The notes under the pieces: model-generated | Told to the model about the DNA's origin: nothing | The model's database searches: none | The model's input: only the letters and a program-made list of their open reading frames with translations | Shown here: positions 2,826-59,094 of the stretch, piece by piece | How positions within the stretch are numbered: position 1 is the stretch's first letter | Layout of the letters: the number at the start of each line of letters is the position of its first letter | Made by a program: the position numbers and the translations under genes | Sequence record: NC_018855.1 | Length of the DNA stretch: 64,000 nucleotides | Reading direction: 5' to 3' (one strand) | Source: Escherichia phage HX01

Positions 2826-3350
2826 ATGTTAGTTTACCGCGTAGAACGTAGTTTTTGTACTCAACGTGAATCATTACCAGGAATTGCTATTGAAGACGGT
2901 AAAGCCGTCAGAATTTGGGAAACCTCTTGGAATAAAGAACCTCGCTCACCATACGGTTGGTCAGGCACCGACAACTCTGAAGAAACATGGGAGTTCCTTG
3001 ATAAACATGGAATACTCTCAGGTAACTTCTACCATCATGGCGACAACTATAATGTCCCTAATCGTCCTACAGTAAATGAAGACAAACTCCTTGAACAAAA
3101 TATCTTAAGATACTATAGAATTGAGCACACATTTGAATTGAGTGAAGATTGGGCTCAAGGGTTCTATTTTGGATTTGAAAGTGTTGACGCGGTTTATGCA
3201 TGGTTTGATGACCAGGTGGATGTTGAACTCCTGAAAGCTAAAGGATACTACATCGCCGTCTATGAAGCACCTGATTTCATCCTCGGAAGTTGTCAATTAA
3301 TGTTTAGACGTTCATTGGCAGAACAAGTTGATTTTATTTTGCTAAAATGA
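2826..3350 (+). CDS. Hypothetical early protein
   Basis: 174 aa ORF with strong RBS GAGGAGA 6 nt upstream and early promoter at 2771-2799. Confidence 0.55.
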   Translation: MLVYRVERSFCTQRESLPGIAIEDGKAVRIWETSWNKEPRSPYGWSGTDNSEETWEFLDKHGILSGNFYHHGDNYNVPNRPTVNEDKLLEQNILRYYRIEHTFELSEDWAQGFYFGFESVDAVYAWFDDQVDVELLKAKGYYIAVYEAPDFILGSCQLMFRRSLAEQVDFILLK

Positions 3351-3635: not shown

Positions 3636-4045
3636 TGGCTAATAAATTTGAAGTTAATAAATGGTATCAGTTCATAGATAAACGTGCCCAAGAAGAGTTT
3701 ATTAAAGACCACACTGATAATGGGATTTATGCACGACGTCTTGGCATGGAGCCATTTAAAGTATTAGATGTTGACCATCTTGGACGTCCTACTAAACTTG
3801 TGACATCTACTGGCATGGTTGGATACGCAACAGGCGGTGATATCCTTGATGAAAACTTTATCTGGCTCTCCACAAATGAAGCAGAGTTCTTTGACGAAGT
3901 TGAAAATCCATATCAAGCGTCCGAAGAGCAAGATTCTGGTGAACTTGACGAATTGTCTGAATTTCCTGTGATGACGATTACTATCGAAAATAATGATCAG
4001 GCATGGTCTTTGTATCAAATGTTGAAAACACATTTTAAGGAATAA
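3635..4045 (+). CDS. Hypothetical acidic protein
   Basis: ORF track 3617-4045; ATG at 3635 overlaps the upstream stop (TAATG) and has an AAGGAAA RBS. Confidence 0.5.
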
Positions 4046-4047
4046 TA

Positions 4048-4227
4048 ATGCCATTATACGACTATAAATGTCAATCTGAAGATTGTGGCCATGAATATGA
4101 AAAAATTAAAAGAATTTCTGAACGAGAAAACGATGTTTGCCCTGAATGTCATCGTTTGTCTACTCGTCGGGTTTCTGCTCCTAAACATGTGAACGGTGGT
4201 TTTTACGACTTACTTAAGAAGGGTTAA
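4048..4227 (+). CDS. Small zinc-ribbon protein (CxxC...CxxC)
   Basis: 59 aa, below ORF-track cutoff; MPLYDYKCQSEDCGH...CPECH; tightly packed between neighbours. Confidence 0.45.
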   Translation: MPLYDYKCQSEDCGHEYEKIKRISERENDVCPECHRLSTRRVSAPKHVNGGFYDLLKKG

Positions 4228-4229
4228 TT

Positions 4230-4655
4230 ATGGCTTTTAAAGGTTTTGAAGTTGGTAAGAAATATCGTATTATCAAAGGACAGGAAGATAATTTCTTGAG
4301 AATTCTTAATACGACTGGTAAACGTCTTAATACTAATCTGCATACTACTTTGTTGTCCAAAGATTTTATTGTAGAAGAGATGATTGGTTACGGCGTTTCG
4401 GTTATTGCCGTAGAAGCCGTAGGCGATTATGGCCGAACTATTCATAGTATGCAAGGTGATATTCTGCTTTATGGTGCAGAATTTAAATTCTTTGAAGAAG
4501 TTCCGGAACCAGATACATCTGTCGATTTCAAAAAAGGCTCTGTAGAATTTGTTGATGGTTCGGTGATCGTATCAGGTGATGTGGTCATTACAGTTAAAAG
4601 TGAACAAGGGCGTTTGGCTGCAATTGATGCACTTCAGAAAATTAAATTTAAATAA
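4230..4655 (+). CDS. Hypothetical protein, positional and length equivalent of T4 goF (141 aa)
   Basis: 141 aa ORF followed directly by a UUCG hairpin terminator; sits upstream of gene 39 as goF does in T4; sequence identity not verified. Confidence 0.45.
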   Translation: MAFKGFEVGKKYRIIKGQEDNFLRILNTTGKRLNTNLHTTLLSKDFIVEEMIGYGVSVIAVEAVGDYGRTIHSMQGDILLYGAEFKFFEEVPEPDTSVDFKKGSVEFVDGSVIVSGDVVITVKSEQGRLAAIDALQKIKFK

Positions 4656-4673
4656 GGGCTTCGGCCCTTTTTG
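4655..4673 (+). terminator. Intrinsic terminator (GGGC-UUCG-GCCC plus T-run)
   Basis: AGGGCTTCGGCCCTTTTT immediately after ORF 4230-4655. Confidence 0.7.
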
Positions 4674-4696
4674 CTTTAGATTTCGGATGATAGAAT
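4669..4696 (+). promoter_or_regulatory. Putative MotA-dependent middle promoter
   Basis: MotA-box-like TTTGCTTTA at about -30, 12-nt spacer, TAGAAT -10; overlaps upstream terminator; precedes homing endonuclease. Confidence 0.45.
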
Positions 4697-4702
4697 ACCT
4701 TT

Positions 4703-5386
4703 ATGAAATACATAACATACTTAACAATATACACAGGCGATAAGTTGCCACCGTTTTATATAGGGTCTACTTATCTTGATAAACATACAAACAATTACTA
4801 TCATGGTACGGTAAAGTCGAAAAAATATAAACAAATTTATGATAAAGAGATAAAAGATAATCCTCATTTATTTGATTCATGTATTATTGGCGAATTTGAT
4901 ACACGGGAAGAAGCGACGTTTTGTGAGTTGTATTACCAGAAATTGCATAATGTGGTTAAATCTGAAAAATTTTTCAACATGTCTTATGCCACAGTTGATG
5001 GGTGCTTTGGTATGGATGTTTCAAAAGAGTTAAATCCATTTTATGGACATAATCACTCTGAAGAAACTATTGAACTACAATCCGTTATCAAGAAAGGCGA
5101 TCTTAATCCGATGTATGGAATTAAGCGCCCGGAACATTCTAAAGCAATGAGTGGCAAAAACAATCCATTTTATAATAAGAAACATACAAAGGAAGCGCTT
5201 ATAAAGTGTGGGCTTAAAAATCGTAAAAGTCCTGTATGGGAATATGAATCTGCTTTATATAAATTATGGTTAGAATTGGATAAACCAAAGGTTGGGAAAT
5301 TTGCTAAAGAAAGCATTAAACGTGGATTTCCGGAAGGTTCATACAAAAATATAGTCATGCAATTTGAGAGAAAATCTAATGATTGA
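4703..5386 (+). mobile_element. Free-standing GIY-YIG homing endonuclease (Seg-like) with NUMOD3-type repeats
   Basis: 227 aa; N-terminal YITYLTIYTGD...FYIGST (GIY-YIG); repeated NPFYG/NPMYG...HS(E/K) modules; 8-nt overlap with gene 39 start. Confidence 0.8.
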
Positions 5387-7199
5387 TAATAAAATTGAAA
5401 TGCTATCCGATAAAGAGCATTGTTTGAAGCGTCCTGGCATGTATATTGGAAGTGTTGCCAATGAAGAACAAGAACGTTTCCTATTCGGTGAATTTAAAAA
5501 GGTTAAATATGTTGCAGGTGTTCTCAAATTAATTGATGAAATTATTGACAACTCGGTAGACGAAGCTATTCGAACCAATTTCAAATACGCTAATAAAATT
5601 TCCGTTAGTATTGATTTAAATTCTAATAAAGTGACTGTTGAAGATAATGGTCGAGGTATTCCTCAAGAAACAGTTATTACTCCTGAAGGAGAAGAAATTC
5701 CAGGACCAGTTGCGGCGTGGACACGTACAAAAGCCGGTGGCAACTTTGGTGACGACAAAGAACGTGTTACGGGTGGACAAAACGGTGTCGGTTCTTCATT
5801 AACAAATATTTTTTCTGTCTCTTTTGTTGGCACTACTTCAGATTGTAAAAACGAATTGACAGTTAATTGTTCTAATAATGCTGATAATATTTCTTGGAAA
5901 TCTAAGCCGTCTAAAAACAACGGGACTAAGGTCGAGTTTATTCCTGATTTCTCTCATTTTGAAATGAATCAATTTGAAAAAATATACCAAGATATTACTA
6001 TAGACCGGCTCCAAACATTGGCAGTCGTTTATCCTGGCATTGAATTTAAATTTAATGGCAAAAAGATTCAAGGTAACTTTAAGAAGTTTGCTAAACAATT
6101 TGATGAAGAGGCCATCATTCAAGAACAAGACGGATGCTCTATTGCCATTGGTCGGTCACCAGATGGCTTCCGACATTTAACTTATGTTAATAACATCCAT
6201 ACCAAAAACGGCGGTCATCACATTGAATGTGTGATGGACGACATTTGCGAAGAATTAATTCCGGCTATTAAACGCAAATATAAAATCGACGTGACTAAAG
6301 CGCGCATCAAGGAATGTCTCACTCTCTTAATGTTCGTTCGTGGAATGAAGAACCTTCGTTTTGATTCCCAAACCAAAGAGCGTTTAACAAGTCCTTATGG
6401 CGAAATTCGGACGCATATTAAATTAGATACCAAAAAATTGGCAAAAAATATTTTGAATTCTGAAGCAGTTTTGATGCCTATAATTGAAGCAGCATTAGCT
6501 CGTAAATTGGCAGCAGAAAAGGCCGCAGAAACTAAAGCAGCTAAAAAGGCAACTAAAGCTAAGGTTCATAAGCATATTAAAGCTAACCAATGTGGTAAAG
6601 ATGCAGATACGACATTGTTTTTAACAGAAGGTGATTCGGCAATTGGTTATCTCATTGATGTTCGTGACCGTGAACTACACGGCGGATTCCCATTACGTGG
6701 TAAGGTGATGAATAGCTGGGGTATGTCATATGCTGATATGATGAAGAACAAAGAGCTCTTCGATATCTGTGCTATCACAGGTCTTATTCTTGGTGAAAAG
6801 GCAGAGAATACGAACTATCGTAATATTGCAATTATGACCGATGCCGATCATGATGGTCTTGGAAGTATTTATCCGGCTTTGCTTGCTTTCTTTAGTAATT
6901 GGCCTGAATTGTTTGAACAAGGACGTATTCGCTTTGTTAAAACGCCTGTAATTATTGCACAAATTGGCAAAACTCAAAAATGGTTTTATACTGTAGCTGA
7001 GTATGAAGAAGCTAAAGATACACTGCCTAAGCATAGTATTCGATACATCAAGGGATTGGGCTCCCTTGAAAAGTCAGAATATCGTGAAATGATTCAGAAC
7101 CCTGTGTACGACGTAGTTAAACTTCCTGAAAATTGGAAAGAACTCTTTGAAATGTTGTTGGGTGATGATTCAGAACTTCGTAAAGAATGGATGTCCTAA
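5379..7199 (+). CDS. 39: DNA topoisomerase II large subunit (GyrB-like ATPase), contiguous 39 plus 60-equivalent
   Basis: ORF track 5364-7199; start placed at MIDNKIEMLSD matching T4 gp39 N-terminus; GHKL ATPase and Toprim-like motifs; 606 aa with no split. Confidence 0.9.
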   Translation: MIDNKIEMLSDKEHCLKRPGMYIGSVANEEQERFLFGEFKKVKYVAGVLKLIDEIIDNSVDEAIRTNFKYANKISVSIDLNSNKVTVEDNGRGIPQETVITPEGEEIPGPVAAWTRTKAGGNFGDDKERVTGGQNGVGSSLTNIFSVSFVGTTSDCKNELTVNCSNNADNISWKSKPSKNNGTKVEFIPDFSHFEMNQFEKIYQDITIDRLQTLAVVYPGIEFKFNGKKIQGNFKKFAKQFDEEAIIQEQDGCSIAIGRSPDGFRHLTYVNNIHTKNGGHHIECVMDDICEELIPAIKRKYKIDVTKARIKECLTLLMFVRGMKNLRFDSQTKERLTSPYGEIRTHIKLDTKKLAKNILNSEAVLMPIIEAALARKLAAEKAAETKAAKKATKAKVHKHIKANQCGKDADTTLFLTEGDSAIGYLIDVRDRELHGGFPLRGKVMNSWGMSYADMMKNKELFDICAITGLILGEKAENTNYRNIAIMTDADHDGLGSIYPALLAFFSNWPELFEQGRIRFVKTPVIIAQIGKTQKWFYTVAEYEEAKDTLPKHSIRYIKGLGSLEKSEYREMIQNPVYDVVKLPENWKELFEMLLGDDSELRKEWMS

Positions 7200-7241: not shown

Positions 7242-8342
7242 ATGAAAGTTATGTTTATCCCATCTCGTGCAGTCCCATTTAATCCTGACCGTGTACAAGG
7301 TGGTCTTGAAGCAGTACATTTAAATGTGTTGAAATATCTTGTGTCCATCGGTGCTGATATTGATTATATCGGCTTTGATAATGACACGTTTGGTGACTGG
7401 AAAGTTACACACCATCCTGTTGGTCATCTGACTAAATTTAGTCTAGGTATGAGTTATACTATGGCTCGTAAGATTGTTGAACTAGCCGGCATCCATGAAT
7501 ACGATTTTGTTGTTACTATGGAACCGACTAAACTAACCGTTCAGGCAATTAAAGACGCAGGTCTCTCTAAAGTTCATAAGAATTTTATGGCAACACCATT
7601 TGAACCGGTATCTCGTGGCATTGTTCAAATTTGGGACCAGACTATTCAAATTCATAAGAATGGTGGTAAGAGTTATGCTCCTACTAAAGCCTTCCGTGAA
7701 TTTGAACGCAAATATTGTTATATGACTTCAGGTCTGACTGACAAAATTGATTATGATTATTGGCGAGCAAATCCGTTGTTTGAAGCCGAAGATTATCCGG
7801 TTATTTGTTTGAATGAGAAACCTGAAGTTCTTCCGGCGACTGATCTGATTATTAGTGCACAACGTTATGACACTAAAATGCGTCGTACTGATGTTGCTCT
7901 TGAAGCGATTAAAGCACTAGGCGAAAATGGTGTAGGATACTGTCCAAGCAAATGGGCACCACCAGCTAAATATCCTGTTATTATTGATGCTCCACACAGT
8001 GAAATCATGGAACGTCTTAAAACAGCTAAAGCGCTTATTAATACGTGTCCTGACACAGGTACGGTAGAGAATAGTTCTATTGAAGCCATCTCTAAAGGTG
8101 TCCCTGTAATCCAGTTAGTTTTTAAGGATTATCCTCATGCGACATTCGAATACGACCCAGATACTGTGCGTGTAGAAATTGATTCCTCTACTCCTAAGAA
8201 AGAAGTAGTTGCGCTTTACACAAAAGCTGTATTAGAATTCACTGACACATACGAAGCTCGAGTTAAACGTGCTGAAGCAGTATGGAAGAAGTATAACCGA
8301 GATGCAGTTGTTGCGATGTGGGATAAAATCTTCACAGCGTAA
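7242..8342 (+). CDS. Glycosyltransferase-like protein (GT-B fold), candidate DNA hypermodification transferase
   Basis: 366 aa; N-terminal MKVMFIPS...GGLE Rossmann start and C-terminal ...TVENSSIEAISKGVPVI resembling the GT4 E-x-E region; occupies the slot between gene 39 and rIIA. Confidence 0.5.
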   Translation: MKVMFIPSRAVPFNPDRVQGGLEAVHLNVLKYLVSIGADIDYIGFDNDTFGDWKVTHHPVGHLTKFSLGMSYTMARKIVELAGIHEYDFVVTMEPTKLTVQAIKDAGLSKVHKNFMATPFEPVSRGIVQIWDQTIQIHKNGGKSYAPTKAFREFERKYCYMTSGLTDKIDYDYWRANPLFEAEDYPVICLNEKPEVLPATDLIISAQRYDTKMRRTDVALEAIKALGENGVGYCPSKWAPPAKYPVIIDAPHSEIMERLKTAKALINTCPDTGTVENSSIEAISKGVPVIQLVFKDYPHATFEYDPDTVRVEIDSSTPKKEVVALYTKAVLEFTDTYEARVKRAEAVWKKYNRDAVVAMWDKIFTA

Positions 8343-25317: not shown

Positions 25318-28300
25318 TTATTCAATCCACTCAAATTTAACAGTTTTATTCACAGGGTCTGGAATAATGCGAACATTACCAATCCTTAAGAAATCCCTTA
25401 TTGTCAAGTTTCCGATTGTTGCATTATCAGAAGGTAAAGCGCCAATATCAGAAGGTTGAGGAGGGTTTCCGCCATCAAATACCTGAACAAAACTCGACCA
25501 AGAATTTTTAGTTTTCTGCCATGTACGTGTCCAACGGGTTGTACGTGCTTCTGGAGTTGTTGGATAAGTAATCCAATCTTGGTAAAGTGAATCAAGTGTA
25601 TTACCAAACTGAGTCAATGTACCAGGAGATTTAACTTCTTCGCCACGTTCTAAGTATGGAAGCCCAGTCACTTCATTAGTTTTTTCAACCATTTTAAAAT
25701 AACCCGGGAATTGGTTATAAGTAGCTGAATCATTAATGTCAATTGACCAGAATCCTACAGTATCAGATGTCGGTGCACGGGTGTATAAATCAGCGGTTTT
25801 AGTGCCCTGAGAACGAATTCTCGAGTTAACAGTTAAACCACCTGAATTTATAGTAGCACCTTTGGCAATGATTAAGCTTTCACCAATCGTTACTTGGCCG
25901 GATGCATTATTAATAGCTAAAGGACGTAATCCATTAAATCCGCCAGTCTGATCACCTGATGCAGTAAGCATAAAATAGGTATTAGCAGCATCATTACGAA
26001 TAAAGAATCCGTAATTACCACTAATTGCTCTGAATGCGTTTGCACTATAGGTTATAAATTCACCCTGTGCTGTCACCGAACGTCCAAATGTTGCCGCACC
26101 ATTAGCATTCAATGTTCCGGATGCATTAACATTAATCGGCCGAACTGTACCGTTGATGCTGAAAGTAATATTACCAAGGTTATCCCGTTGTGAATAAAAG
26201 TGGTTAGATGTTTCATCACCAACTTCAAATATCGTAGCACGAGATGTATCAGAACCGCCGGCGAATTGGTTACCCCATACACGGATATTCATCGCCTGAG
26301 CAGGGTTGTTTCCAGTTTGTGGACCTTTTTCAAATATTAAGCGAGTTGAAGCACCTGTATTAGAAATAGTTAATGTACTATTAGCAGATACCGAACCACC
26401 AAACGTAGCCGTACTAGATGATACAAGAGGGGCACTCAGATTCGTTTGTTGGGTTAAGGTTAGTGAACCATTAACCGTCTGTGCAATGTCCCTACGAATG
26501 AACTGAGATGAATCTAGGCCATCTAATAAATTTGCGTCAGCAGCTTTTGCTTTTAATGGCAAGTAATTTGCCAATACACGGTTTAATTCATACGGTGATA
26601 CTGCATAGCTATTTTTCTCGTATAGCTCTAAGTTTTGTGTAGAACCGACTGTATCATTACCAACGAATGTAATAGAACCGGATGAAGTTTTAACGAATCC
26701 GCGAATTGCTGTAGTAGCAGCCCATGTTGGTTCACTCTGCACAATCCATTTTAAATTCTTAGGAGATACAGCAGTGTTCGCTGACGTTCCAGTCACAGTT
26801 TCAGACTGGGTTGCAACCTTGATTACACCTTCAGACGTTTCAGTGGACTTAGTCCCTAAAAGCTTTTTAGGAGTAATAAGAACATCATCTAAAGTTCCTG
26901 CATTAGATTCTGCCTGGGTCGCTACGCGAAGTGTACCACGTTGTGTTTCATTTGCTTTAGAAATATCAAGAGTATAATGGTTCCACAAGGTTCCTTCTTC
27001 AATAAGTCCGGAATCAGAATTAACACTGGTACGGTCAGAAGAATCAAAATGAGTTTTAATTTTCAGTGGAGTCGAGATACGAGTATCATCAGTTCCAGTA
27101 TCAAATTCAACTTGCGTAGCAATTTCGGCTATGCCGGATAATCCTTCCGTCGCTCTCCTATCATTTAACGTCTTAGGCGTTACTGCACGTGTATAATCAG
27201 TCCCAGCATTAGTTTCTGCTTGCGTAGCAATTTCAATTAAACCAATACGTCCATCAGTAGAAGTTTTCTTATGTAGTGTTTCAGGAGTTACTACAGCATG
27301 AGAGTATCCAGACTGAGATTGTCCAGCAATTACTTCACTATCAATAGCTAAAATTACTGCACCTTGTTGGGCGTAAGTTGCTTTATATTGGTCAAGGGCT
27401 TTAGGAGAAATAGTTAAATTATTTACGGTTTTATTATAAACATTAGTGCCTGCAGCCCCACGAGTTTCGGCAGGAGTAGCAGAAGTAGTTGATACATATT
27501 TAACTATACCCGATAGTGTTTCGGAACCCTGACGTGCCTGTAATTTCTTAGGCGTAATAATCGTTGTGTCATCAAGACCAGCATCGGTTTCAGTCTGAGT
27601 AGCAATTTCAGCAAGACCGCGACGAGTTTCAGTTGCTGTACGCTCATTTAGTTTTTTAGGCGTAACAATAGTATCGTCCACAAATGATGCTGTGGAATTC
27701 TGGTTAACTTGTGCTGTTGTAGCAATTTTAGCGATACCACGTCGAGCTTCAGTTGCTGTACGATTTGCCAACGTTTCAGGAGTAATAGCAACTTCTTTAG
27801 CCGGAGTATTCTCTAAATCAACATTTGCTTGCGCTTGAGTAGCAAGAGCAATAACACCTAAACGAGCTCGTGTAGCATCAGTTCCAGCATCAACACGTTC
27901 TACCGTAGGGACATTCTGTTGCACAACCCAATAATGGGTGTCAGAATCGGTATCTTCAATATATGCTAATTCTAATACAGGAACATATGAATTAGTACCA
28001 TTGAATTCCAATTCAGTAACAGAAACCCATTGAGCATCAGGTGGATATTCAGAACGTTTAGGGAACTGAAGCAATGCAACAGAAGAAGCAATTGTATCAC
28101 CAGTAGCTGCTTTAATTTTTACTGTTTGGCCTTTACGCATGTAGTTCATTGAAATTTTAACAGTGTCACCACTCAAAATTCCAGTAGGCAGCGTAAGATT
28201 AATAGTTCCGGTTGTAGCGTTATTTGTGCCAAAAATAAGAACTTCTTCATTTGGACGAATATTTGAATCAGCACGGATAATACGAAGACGCGATTTCTGG

Positions 28301-46231: not shown

Positions 46232-46258
46232 TATGCTTTACGAATAGTATGGTATTAT
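46231..46258 (+). promoter_or_regulatory. Putative MotA-box middle promoter upstream of gene 31
   Basis: ATGCTTTA, 12-nt spacer, then TATTAT. Confidence 0.35.
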
Positions 46259-57321: not shown

Positions 57322-59094
57322 TTAATTAACACCGGTGGCATGGAAAATTCCAGGAGCCGTTGTACTTGTTACAGGGGTCATATTCTGGACTACGGTATTC
57401 TTTTTGACGACATTATTTGTGTTACTAATCGCCGCTACCGGTTGCTGTTGTTTAGATTCAGAAGCACGTCCTTTCTCTATTGACTGAACTTGTTTTGCTT
57501 CCGGAGATTTAGTCGAAGATTCAGGCTTAACTGTTGTCTGAGCCTTTTTGGCTTCAGCCATTTTATTATTTAGCTTTTCAAATCTAGCATCTAATTCCTT
57601 TTTAACAACAGGAGTTTTATTAAGTTCAGGGTCTTTAATAAGTTTACTTAAATCGGCATAAGACTTCTCGACGTTTTTAGCATTTTCCGGATTAGTCATA
57701 TCGATTTTATCGATATAATCCTCAAATCTAACTAGTGCCGCACGAGTTTCATTAGCTTTTATATACGCCTCTTTACGCTCCTCTTCAGGTAACTCTTTTA
57801 ATTTTGCCGATTCCGCAGCACGCTCATCGCTTGTACTAAACTCTTCTTTATTGTCATTACCACGAACCCAGTTGGTAACGAATGTTTTGCCGCGTTGTAA
57901 CATATCAAGACCTTTAGAAACGGTTCCTAATTCCCCATCATCACGCTTCATTTGATATTTAGCGACTTTCTCTTGGTCTTCTTTCTTTAATTTGTTCCCA
58001 GTAGTTTCTTGGAATCCTTCCAAAGCACGTCCTTCTATTTCATCCGCGGTATCACCAAAACCTATAGCACGCAATATAGACGCGGAGAGTTTAGCCATTC
58101 CTAATTGAATTAGTTCACCTAAGTTCATTAATGCTGTTCCTACACCTTTGACAATAGCAACGGTTAAACCACCCCAGTCTCCAGCTTCCCACAATTGTTT
58201 TATAGAGTCAATGGAAGTGAATATATCACTTAAGAATTTACCCCACTCTTTAGCTTCATCGGAGAATTTAGTAAAGTTTTCATCAAATAAATCCCAGGCA
58301 GAAGTGAACTTGTCTGTCCAATATTTGAAATGGACTATCAATAAATCAATACCGATAACAATACCAAGAATAAGTGCGGCCATTTTTGCTGCTTCAATAG
58401 CAGCCGTTATAGTGTATTTGAAAAGCATTCCAGCAATTCTGTCCGAAATTGATATTGATTTATTAAACCCGGCTTGAACTGTTTTGGTGAGCATTGCAAT
58501 TTTATCGCTCAATTTAAAGCTAATTCCGCCTTTAGAATCAGAAGTAGAATTAGCACTTTCTTGAACCGGGGCTGGGAAGAAATCTTCGTCTGGCTTATTA
58601 TCAATCTTTTCAGGTGTAGGTAATGCTTTAAACAGCTCATCATAAGTTTCATTCTCAACCACTTTAACAGGTATTGCGTTCTCAATTACTTCAAGAGAGG
58701 TGCCTCCTGTATTTTGAATAGCGGTAGATGTTTGTAATTTTTGCTCTAATAATGTAGCTAATCGGTCTAACTTGGAGCTTATTGCACTAGAAACTTCGTT
58801 TATACTTTTAGTGACTTCAGTTTGTTTTTCAATAACTTCTGCGATAAGCTCTGTGCCTTCAGCAGTATTATCTGTCGAATTCTTTAAGTCTCCAATTGAT
58901 TCAATAATTCCATTGCCTTTATCTTCTACACTTTGTGATGTGAGTTCAGACGCGGCTTGGACATCGTCTAGTTTTGATGAAATATCATTCAATGCTTCTA
59001 ATGAATCAGTAGCTGCTGTTGCAGCTACTTTTTGTGGTTTATTATCGGCAATGACCTTATTTCTACGCATGGATTTCATTTCTTCAGGTTTCAT
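57322..59094 (-). CDS. 29: gp29 tail tape-measure/baseplate hub protein
   Basis: 590 aa (T4 590 aa), synteny. Confidence 0.9.
   Translation of the reverse strand: MKPEEMKSMRRNKVIADNKPQKVAATAATDSLEALNDISSKLDDVQAASELTSQSVEDKGNGIIESIGDLKNSTDNTAEGTELIAEVIEKQTEVTKSINEVSSAISSKLDRLATLLEQKLQTSTAIQNTGGTSLEVIENAIPVKVVENETYDELFKALPTPEKIDNKPDEDFFPAPVQESANSTSDSKGGISFKLSDKIAMLTKTVQAGFNKSISISDRIAGMLFKYTITAAIEAAKMAALILGIVIGIDLLIVHFKYWTDKFTSAWDLFDENFTKFSDEAKEWGKFLSDIFTSIDSIKQLWEAGDWGGLTVAIVKGVGTALMNLGELIQLGMAKLSASILRAIGFGDTADEIEGRALEGFQETTGNKLKKEDQEKVAKYQMKRDDGELGTVSKGLDMLQRGKTFVTNWVRGNDNKEEFSTSDERAAESAKLKELPEEERKEAYIKANETRAALVRFEDYIDKIDMTNPENAKNVEKSYADLSKLIKDPELNKTPVVKKELDARFEKLNNKMAEAKKAQTTVKPESSTKSPEAKQVQSIEKGRASESKQQQPVAAISNTNNVVKKNTVVQNMTPVTSTTAPGIFHATGVN

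Follow-up and report, generated by a model that had tools for sequence, protein, structure and literature searches.

A putative Seg-like GIY-YIG homing endonuclease gene that probably moves with a divergent allele of gene 39 in Escherichia phage HX01

A 64,000-nucleotide stretch of DNA from Escherichia phage HX01 (NC_018855.1; the whole stretch, numbered from its first nucleotide, is referred to as the window) was analysed around gene 39, which encodes the large subunit of topoisomerase II and is immediately preceded by an open reading frame (ORF) of 227 codons. The ORF was best explained, with a probability of about 0.75, as a free-standing, Seg-like homing endonuclease gene of the GIY-YIG type that moves together with one allele class of the first part of gene 39 (class A) by cutting the alternative allele (class B). 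It sits between the -10 box of a resident promoter and gene 39 in a minority of otherwise near-identical phages, and is always accompanied by the class A allele over the first 1105 nt of gene 39. The original prediction of an inserted homing endonuclease at this position, made from the sequence by itself, was supported as real and correctly interpreted, with refinements.

Distribution of the ORF and edges of the insertion

The window groups with the T4-like genus Mosigvirus, JM10 and G2285 being its closest relatives (98.4-98.6% identity over positions 4000-6000). Out of 165 Mosigvirus records matching positions 4000-6000, eight carried the ORF (JM10, G2285, AV109, AV114, AV115, AV116, AV118 and CEV1), that is, it was absent from approximately 95%, and in the records without it the match to HX01 ended at window position 4702-4704. 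In Dhakavirus, an ortholog was carried at the same place by Bp7, IME281 and EcWhh-1 alone, with dozens of phages lacking it. Presence or absence at one fixed site with clean boundaries, as is characteristic of homing genes, bore out the predicted polymorphic mobile insertion; an ORF found in every relative and without signs of mobility, the pattern opposed to it, was not observed.

The ORF-less phages PHB12, ST0 and AV117 possess an identical hairpin and MotA-type promoter, followed directly by CATAAC-GAGGAG-ACAAC-ATG, ending in the start codon of gene 39, and the hairpin (4654-4669) is likewise present in Dhakaviruses. In phages lacking the ORF, the promoter sequence is placed 20 nt before the ribosome-binding site of gene 39. 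Since phages without the ORF have both elements, the hairpin and the promoter represent resident signals of gene 39, and the insertion begins just after the -10 box. The hairpin and MotA-like promoter that had been noted upstream of the ORF were therefore present, but do not belong to the inserted sequence.

Identity to the ORF-less PHB12, computed in sliding windows, was approximately 100% up to position 4702, 61-81% over 5379-6475 and 97-100% from 6476, the last differences being located at 6482-6483. This profile delimits a foreign unit of 1.78 kb (4703-6483), comprising the ORF and the first 1105 nt of gene 39. The alignment to ORF-less relatives that had been proposed for defining the insertion thus yielded its edges, but enclosed a block larger than the ORF originally taken as the insertion. 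The flanks of HX01 were nearer to the ORF-less PHB12 (100%) than to some of the other carriers (81-98% at 4377-4576), which suggests that the block occurs in different genetic backgrounds and has moved between them.

In AV118, the copy of the ORF was frameshifted in an A-run after approximately codon 40 (around position 3320 of the AV118 locus segment), which could be a result of pseudogene decay or of a homopolymer sequencing error. A second, unrelated endonuclease gene with an HNH motif and NUMOD3 (265 aa) was found directly downstream of gene 39 in AV115 (locus segment 5700-6497), and the corresponding HNH and NUMOD3 gene in AV118 was split into two ORFs (5699-6049 and 6066-6497 of the locus segment). 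Gene 39 is hence flanked by two selfish elements in some of the ORF-carrying Mosigviruses; the HX01 window is without the downstream one.

Two allele classes of gene 39

Comparison of Mosigvirus and Dhakavirus phages resolved nt 1-1100 of gene 39 into two allele classes that cut across the genera, and the 3' part of the gene sorted by genus. Class A comprised HX01, Bp7, FB, IME281 and TG1 (76-79% nucleotide identity between lineages, 98% for Bp7/FB; 80-87% amino acid identity), TG1 having been placed there by protein comparison only, and class B comprised PHB12, ST0 and QL01 (80-81% nucleotide identity between genera; 88% amino acid identity). All pairs of class A and class B sequences were 67-70% identical at the nucleotide level. 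Over nt 1110-1821, identities were 99% within Mosigvirus, 88-99% within Dhakavirus and 74-76% between the genera. In both genera the switch between alleles was located at nt 1105-1107, corresponding to the start of an Ala/Lys-rich linker (IEAALARKLAAEKAAE...) between the transducer and Toprim domains. The same class A end point in two genera is the kind of flanking inheritance expected of a homing gene, and the linked segment of 1105 nt, as judged from these alignments, fits co-conversion without being proof of it.

The Dhakavirus FB (vB_EcoM_FB) displayed a class B-type intergenic promoter joined to a class A gene 39 at ATGATT (locus segment 2546-2655), an arrangement produced either by endonuclease loss or by recombination.

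Site fidelity and related genes

All ten full-length orthologs examined adjoin gene 39 upstream and overlap its start. They originated from HX01 (Mosigvirus), Bp7 and IME281 (Dhakavirus), TG1 (Tegunavirus), PSTRCR_127 (Gualtarvirus), Nispero (Jiaodavirus) and four metagenomic contigs, the proteins of the latter being 56-78% identical to the HX01 protein. In GenBank, the TG1 and Nispero orthologs are already called 'GIY-YIG homing endonuclease'. Upstream of gene 47, many Tequatroviruses carry the same nuclease domain joined to another C-terminal half; the teqhad gene (locus segment 1795-2418), for example, is approximately 65% identical over aa 2-123 and overlaps gene 47 (SbcD-like), and genes of this type are labelled 'HNH endonuclease' in RefSeq. 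From the sequence comparison, the gene 47 paralog would represent domain shuffling as expected of modular homing endonucleases. A literature search found no paper on an endonuclease upstream of gene 39, its coverage being incomplete and thus no proof of absence.

A divergent GIY-YIG nuclease domain

Structure prediction and residue conservation supported the N-terminal domain of the ORF product as a divergent GIY-YIG domain belonging to a separate subfamily; the evidence from sequence alone was weak, and the fold was provided by the predicted model. The PF01541 profile matched the protein over profile positions 2-73 of 78, with a score of 9.3 bits (E = 1.9) relative to a cut-off of 22.6, and was weakly matched by 29 of 50 relatives (best E 1.5e-4), the low score reflecting the failure of a divergent subfamily to reach the threshold and not a different fold. 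TIGR01453, a group I intron endonuclease model, gave a collinear match (E 5e-5) under its cut-off. Pfam at E <= 1 reported NUMOD3 alone and no GIY-YIG domain, phmmer against the PDB gave no match, a family profile against the PDB matched the DNA-binding domain of I-TevI only and no nuclease domain, and hhalign against the single I-TevI sequence aligned NUMOD3 and left the nuclease domain unmatched. Searching a database with the catalytic domain of I-TevI returned only nine near-identical fragments, so that the canonical profile was thin; profile-profile alignment with it (hhalign, E 0.12) was not significant and served solely as a guide to residue correspondence.

An AlphaFold2 model, built on an alignment of 50 sequences (mean pLDDT 88.7; residues 1-100 at 93-98), predicted a beta-beta-alpha-alpha-beta-alpha topology for the N-domain, which is that of the GIY-YIG core. 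Foldseek searches with the model returned the I-TevI structures 1mk0 and 1ln0 first (probability 0.96-0.99), all top five matches being I-TevI and UvrC, and the predicted fold also matched Eco29kI. Among predicted viral structures (BFVD), 181 matches were obtained at E <= 1e-3, many of which bear names such as Seg, GIY-YIG or group I intron endonuclease.

Residue conservation was determined across 121 family members (the best 120 of 172 homologs). The 'GIY' tyrosine and the 'YIG' triad were recognised in T8-I9-Y10 and Y19-I20-G21-S22 (Y10 99%, Y19 100%, I20 and G21 99%, S22 98%), and A71 and E75 were found in 100% and N92 in 99% of the members. The metal-binding E75 of I-TevI was aligned to E75 of the ORF product by the family hidden Markov model, and N92 was paired with I-TevI N90 by hhalign with low confidence. 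Further invariant residues of the subfamily are Y33, S39, E49 and F57. The canonical arginine (R27 in I-TevI) has no invariant counterpart; its place appears to be taken by Lys27, the sole conserved basic residue in a shortened helix alpha-1, and the family has K, R and N at this position in 69%, 16% and 9% of its members, respectively; the interchange of K and R (85% together) suggests that a positive charge is functionally required. Values of dN/dS relative to nine orthologs were 0.04-0.18 in both halves of the protein, with dS saturated, indicating strong purifying selection. The GIY-YIG module of the original prediction was in this way only partly visible in the sequence itself, PF01541 remaining under its cut-off, and was carried by the fold match and the conserved residues; loss of the catalytic residues, which would have spoken against it, was not observed at Y10, Y19, G21, E75 or N92 (99-100%), the arginine position alone appearing to be altered.

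DNA-binding half of the protein

The NUMOD3-like repeats that had been proposed to follow the nuclease domain were confirmed by Pfam, and the motifs NPFYG, NPMYG and NPFYN, at nt 5033, 5105 and 5162, were the only ones of their kind in the whole window. The family profile matched the DNA-binding domain of I-TevI (1i3j, E 0.004), to which hhalign also aligned NUMOD3, and the order of a nuclease domain followed by NUMOD3 corresponds to the modular build of I-TevI and Seg-type enzymes. The C-terminal helical domain gave weak homeodomain-like matches only. The ORF protein contained no CxxC pairs that could form a zinc-finger linker, and PF22635 was unmatched in it and weakly matched by eight of 50 relatives. 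Residues 139-227 (nt 5117-5383) were approximately 32% identical to the C-terminus of T4 MobD, an endonuclease of the HNH family, a likeness which suggests that nuclease families may exchange DNA-binding modules.

Transcription and translation signals

The hairpin upstream of the ORF had a folding energy of -9.4 kcal/mol with a modest z-score (-1.4), and a terminator scan produced five terminator-like sites in the region compared to 0.9 expected. Six occurrences of the MotA-box/-10 pattern, all on the + strand, were counted in the window, 1.0 being expected. The spacer of the resident promoter agrees with the published MotA consensus, in which the spacing is 12 +/- 1 and the -10 element is numbered from -12 to -7 (PMC2988021). 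With this numbering, the predicted +1 is position 4703, the A of the ATG of the ORF, and no ribosome-binding site was seen before that ATG. From the sequence, the resident promoter is predicted to yield either a leaderless mRNA of the ORF or no translation from it, the dose of the enzyme being low in both cases. Candidate middle promoters were also located at 4465-4489, inside the 39.1-like gene, and at 26953-26978, 46234-46258 and 58624-58648, all on the + strand.

The same layout, with the -10 element ending 6-7 nt before the ATG and no ribosome-binding site, was present in all seven members of the 'MKYITYLTIY' subgroup (of the ten orthologs; four genera). HX01, TG1 and P0016 have the exact TGCTTTA box and a spacer of 12 nt, and P0002 and P0005 a TGCTTTT box with one mismatch; the Nispero ortholog had an early-type promoter (GTTTAC-N17-TATAAT) and that of Bp7 a TATAAT lacking any recognisable element upstream. 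The three orthologs beginning with 'MFIVYLTIYS' possess ordinary GGAG ribosome-binding sites and the gene 47 paralog teqhad had no clear leaderless-type pattern, so the leaderless layout appears specific to one subgroup. A leaderless mRNA linked to T4 endonucleases was not found in the literature search, coverage again being incomplete.

A second MotA-type element, inside the ORF, was present in eight of the ten orthologs. Out of 91 alignment columns with a conserved amino acid, only eight used a single codon throughout, and three of these (A184 GCT, L185 TTA and E191 GAA) account for three of the four conserved-residue codons in the internal box and -10 element (Fisher p = 0.0018), the spacer codon L188 varying freely. 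This pattern of codon fixation may reflect a middle promoter within the coding sequence that maintains transcription of gene 39. The overlap of 8 nt between the ORF and gene 39, as originally described, was verified (stop codon TGA at 5384-5386, ATG of gene 39 at 5379-5381), the start of gene 39 having been assigned by homology to MIKNEIK/MIDNKIE in relatives, and Bp7 and IME281, like HX01, have the ribosome-binding site of gene 39 placed within the final ORF codons.

Gene order and features of the locus

The ORF was present as described, with an ATG start and 227 codons, and its coordinates and those of the surrounding features are given in Table 1. On the + strand, the left part of the window holds the end of dda, dexA, three MotB.x-like paralogs and an ORF of approximately 174 aa that is labelled 'transcriptional regulator' in relatives too, followed by cef, one more ORF and a zinc-ribbon gene. 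The MotB.x-like genes form a tandem array (1314-1808, 1873-2337 and 2347-2766) with the common C-terminal motif ISDQWVEDG.KLYNIVF.G.F.VV; they are labelled 'transcriptional regulator' or MotB.x in relatives, and their copy number and boundaries differ among Mosigviruses. To the right, gene 39 (phrog_543, E 2e-283; Pfam GHKL, DNA_gyraseB and Toprim) is followed by an ORF of 366 aa, rIIA and rIIB. The 366-aa ORF is conserved in Mosigvirus, its sole match being phrog_8302, of unknown function, and a Pfam search with it gave no match.

Table 1. Features at the gene 39 locus of phage HX01 (window coordinates)
Feature	Position	Strand	Remarks
Zinc-ribbon gene resembling T4 39.2	4048-4227	+	
Gene resembling 39.1 or goF	4230-4655	+	Upstream neighbour of the ORF
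Terminator-like hairpin GGGC-UUCG-GCCC with T-run	4654-4669	+	Terminator scan; after the 39.1-like gene; resident, outside the insertion
Resident gene 39 middle promoter	4672-4696	+	MotA box TGCTTTA 4672-4678, 12-nt spacer, -10 TAGAAT 4691-4696
Mobile block (ORF and class A allele, gene 39 nt 1-1105)	4703-6483	+	1.78 kb; gene 39 part encodes ATPase and transducer domains
ORF, putative free-standing homing endonuclease gene	4703-5386	+	ATG start, 227 aa
Predicted divergent GIY-YIG nuclease domain	4703-5011	+	aa 1-~103; T8-I9-Y10, Y19-I20-G21-S22, K27, Y33, E75, N92
Three NUMOD3 DNA-binding repeats	5030-5200	+	aa 110-166; PF07460, E 8.7e-12, three stretches
C-terminal helical domain resembling helix-turn-helix	5231-5380	+	aa 177-226
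Candidate MotA-type promoter inside the ORF	5251-5276	+	TGCTTTA-N13-TAGAAT; ~100 nt before the gene 39 ATG
Gene 39 ribosome-binding site GAGAGA	5366-5371	+	Within the last ORF codons; read from sequence
Gene 39, unsplit topoisomerase II large subunit	5379-7199	+	606 aa; phrog_543 and Pfam
ORF between gene 39 and rIIA	7242-8342	+	366 aa

Proposed mechanism and alternative explanations

A mechanism can be proposed on the basis of the biology of Seg enzymes and I-TevI (PMC2988022, PMC2330249). By analogy, in a mixed infection the enzyme would bind and cut the class B (endonuclease-less) gene 39 region of a co-infecting phage, and the cut would be resected until homology returns, on the left at the conserved hairpin and promoter and on the right at the linker-coding stretch from nt 1106, as the difference of approximately 30% between the classes would let strand invasion start only beyond these points. 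Repair from the endonuclease-carrying genome would copy the ORF and the class A segment as one block, and because such repair copies between conserved flanks, constant end points would be explained without a single ancestry. With its resistant target, the class A segment would presumably escape cutting and thereby protect the carrier genome. Expression of the ORF would be held low by the position of its ATG at the predicted transcription start, giving a leaderless mRNA, while the internal MotA-type promoter would keep gene 39 in middle-mode transcription and the ribosome-binding site in the end of the ORF would provide for its translation.

As a more tentative elaboration, the ORF could constitute a self-contained and expression-neutral cassette placed exactly at the +1 of the gene 39 middle promoter, combining leaderless-only translation, a promoter written in synonymous codons and class A as an immunity allele. 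The class A ATPase-domain allele would then be a long-lived immunity allele common to several genera, and leaderless control, if true, would represent a new kind of dosage control of homing endonucleases, none having been described in the T4 literature searched.

Several observations weigh against an active homing element. Both proposed expression features, the leaderless start and the promoter within the ORF, are sequence-based predictions. Block ends were identical in all Mosigvirus carriers, and a search for independent tract end points among carriers of the gene found none, which means that there are no independent co-conversion tracts and that a single acquisition is equally possible. Both classes are old, each being approximately 80% identical between genera, and carriers are rare (approximately 5%), unlike what a very efficient homing element would produce. 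Phage FB lacks the endonuclease but has a class A gene 39, showing that the divergent allele can occur on its own. Within the nuclease domain, the non-significant alignment to the I-TevI profile, lysine at the canonical arginine position and a helix alpha-1 approximately nine residues shorter than that of I-TevI (in that same alignment) point in the same direction.

The age of the classes, the carrier frequency, phage FB and the identical block ends would all be accounted for by an old allelic dimorphism, in which the ORF and class A haplotype is moved by ordinary recombination at conserved flanks and the nuclease is no longer self-spreading. With class A and class B differing more (67-70% identity) than either does between genera, the split appears to be at least as old as the genera, and the breakpoint at a protein domain boundary, in the linker before Toprim, would likewise suit ordinary recombination. 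Against this explanation, purifying selection is strong in both the nuclease and the DNA-binding parts (dS saturated), the catalytic Tyr, Tyr, Glu and Asn are retained in 99-100% of the family, and the ORF is tied to a single site in ten of ten orthologs from five named genera and four metagenomic contigs. Together with the flanks of HX01, which suggest movement of the block, this makes the dimorphism an unlikely explanation relative to a homing endonuclease gene.

I-TevI represses its own promoter, and the ORF product might by the same token be a domesticated, nuclease-dead DNA-binding regulator, for example a repressor at the gene 39 promoter. The replacement of the canonical arginine by Lys27, or by Asn in some relatives, the shortened alpha-1, the sub-threshold Pfam score and the location of the gene on the gene 39 promoter with a second MotA-like element inside it could be read in this way. 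Pure DNA binding would, however, not need the other catalytic positions, which are invariant, and position 27 retains its positive charge in 85% of the family. Presence or absence together with a linked divergent target gene is moreover the mark of a homing element that is, or recently was, active, and as most phages are without the ORF, gene 39 does not need it; such a regulator was therefore considered highly improbable. That the ORF is annotation noise, that is, a chance ORF or an HNH endonuclease as in the labels of phrog_10820 and of RefSeq for Bp7 and IME281, can be dismissed, and the label itself was rejected, given that no HNH motif or Pfam match was found, the predicted fold is GIY-YIG, the homology search returned 172 homologs and dN/dS is well below 1.

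Significance and comparison with known systems

Free-standing endonucleases are a major force in the mosaicism of T4-like phages, and to our knowledge few of them have defined mobile units. The HX01 element is of an ordinary kind, but stands out for the clarity of its boundaries and control signals: the mobile unit can be read from genome comparison, with its left edge at a promoter -10 box and its right edge at a domain linker 1105 nt into an essential replication gene, in two genera. Beyond the identification of the gene, the analysis adds the precise mobile block, allele classes shared across genera and two testable expression predictions, namely a leaderless start and a promoter within coding sequence. 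The natural pair of topoisomerase ATPase-domain alleles offers a system for studying homing, marker exclusion and the compatibility of chimeric enzymes. The public labels 'HNH endonuclease' and 'hypothetical protein' are wrong for this ORF family, and a correction is due.

The Seg endonucleases of T4 (SegA-G) include SegF beside gene 56, SegG beside gene 32 and SegB in the tRNA cluster. Like these, the HX01 gene is free-standing between conserved genes, encodes an N-domain of the GIY-YIG type joined to a DNA-binding C-terminal half, varies in presence among close relatives with flanking markers co-inherited, and has BFVD fold matches to SegG and Seg-like proteins (E 1e-7 to 1e-8). It differs in that no T4 protein matched the N-domain among the matches listed by tblastn (E <= 1e-3), only the C-terminal part matching MobD, and in that the HX01 subfamily falls below the PF01541 threshold, with Lys for Arg, a short alpha-1 and the invariant Y33, S39, E49 and F57. 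None of the described T4 Seg sites, furthermore, lies upstream of gene 39, and the HX01 enzyme is known from sequence and a model.

I-TevI, the td intron endonuclease (1mk0, 1ln0, 1i3j), is the best solved-structure match of the nuclease domain, its E75 is aligned, its DNA-binding domain aligns with NUMOD3, and the weak TIGR01453 match is collinear. Unlike I-TevI, the HX01 protein is not intron-encoded, is without a Cys4 zinc-finger linker, has three NUMOD3 repeats and is approximately 18% identical.

The MobA cassette of T4 gene 39/60 consists of an HNH endonuclease and a bypass element (bioRxiv 10.1101/2022.08.31.505936). It resembles the HX01 element in targeting the gene of the topoisomerase II large subunit and in carrying replacement host-gene sequence. 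MobA is an HNH enzyme located inside the coding region near aa 466-473, where the gene is split, whereas the HX01 element is of the GIY-YIG type and lies upstream of an intact, fused gene, the first 368 codons of which are replaced by a divergent allele. In ICP1 phages, nuclease genes are located at boundaries of genetic exchange (PMC10448857). The ICP1 case, from another phage family and with other nucleases, is similar in concept only: in both, an endonuclease gene lies at one border of a block exchanged by recombination among related phages.

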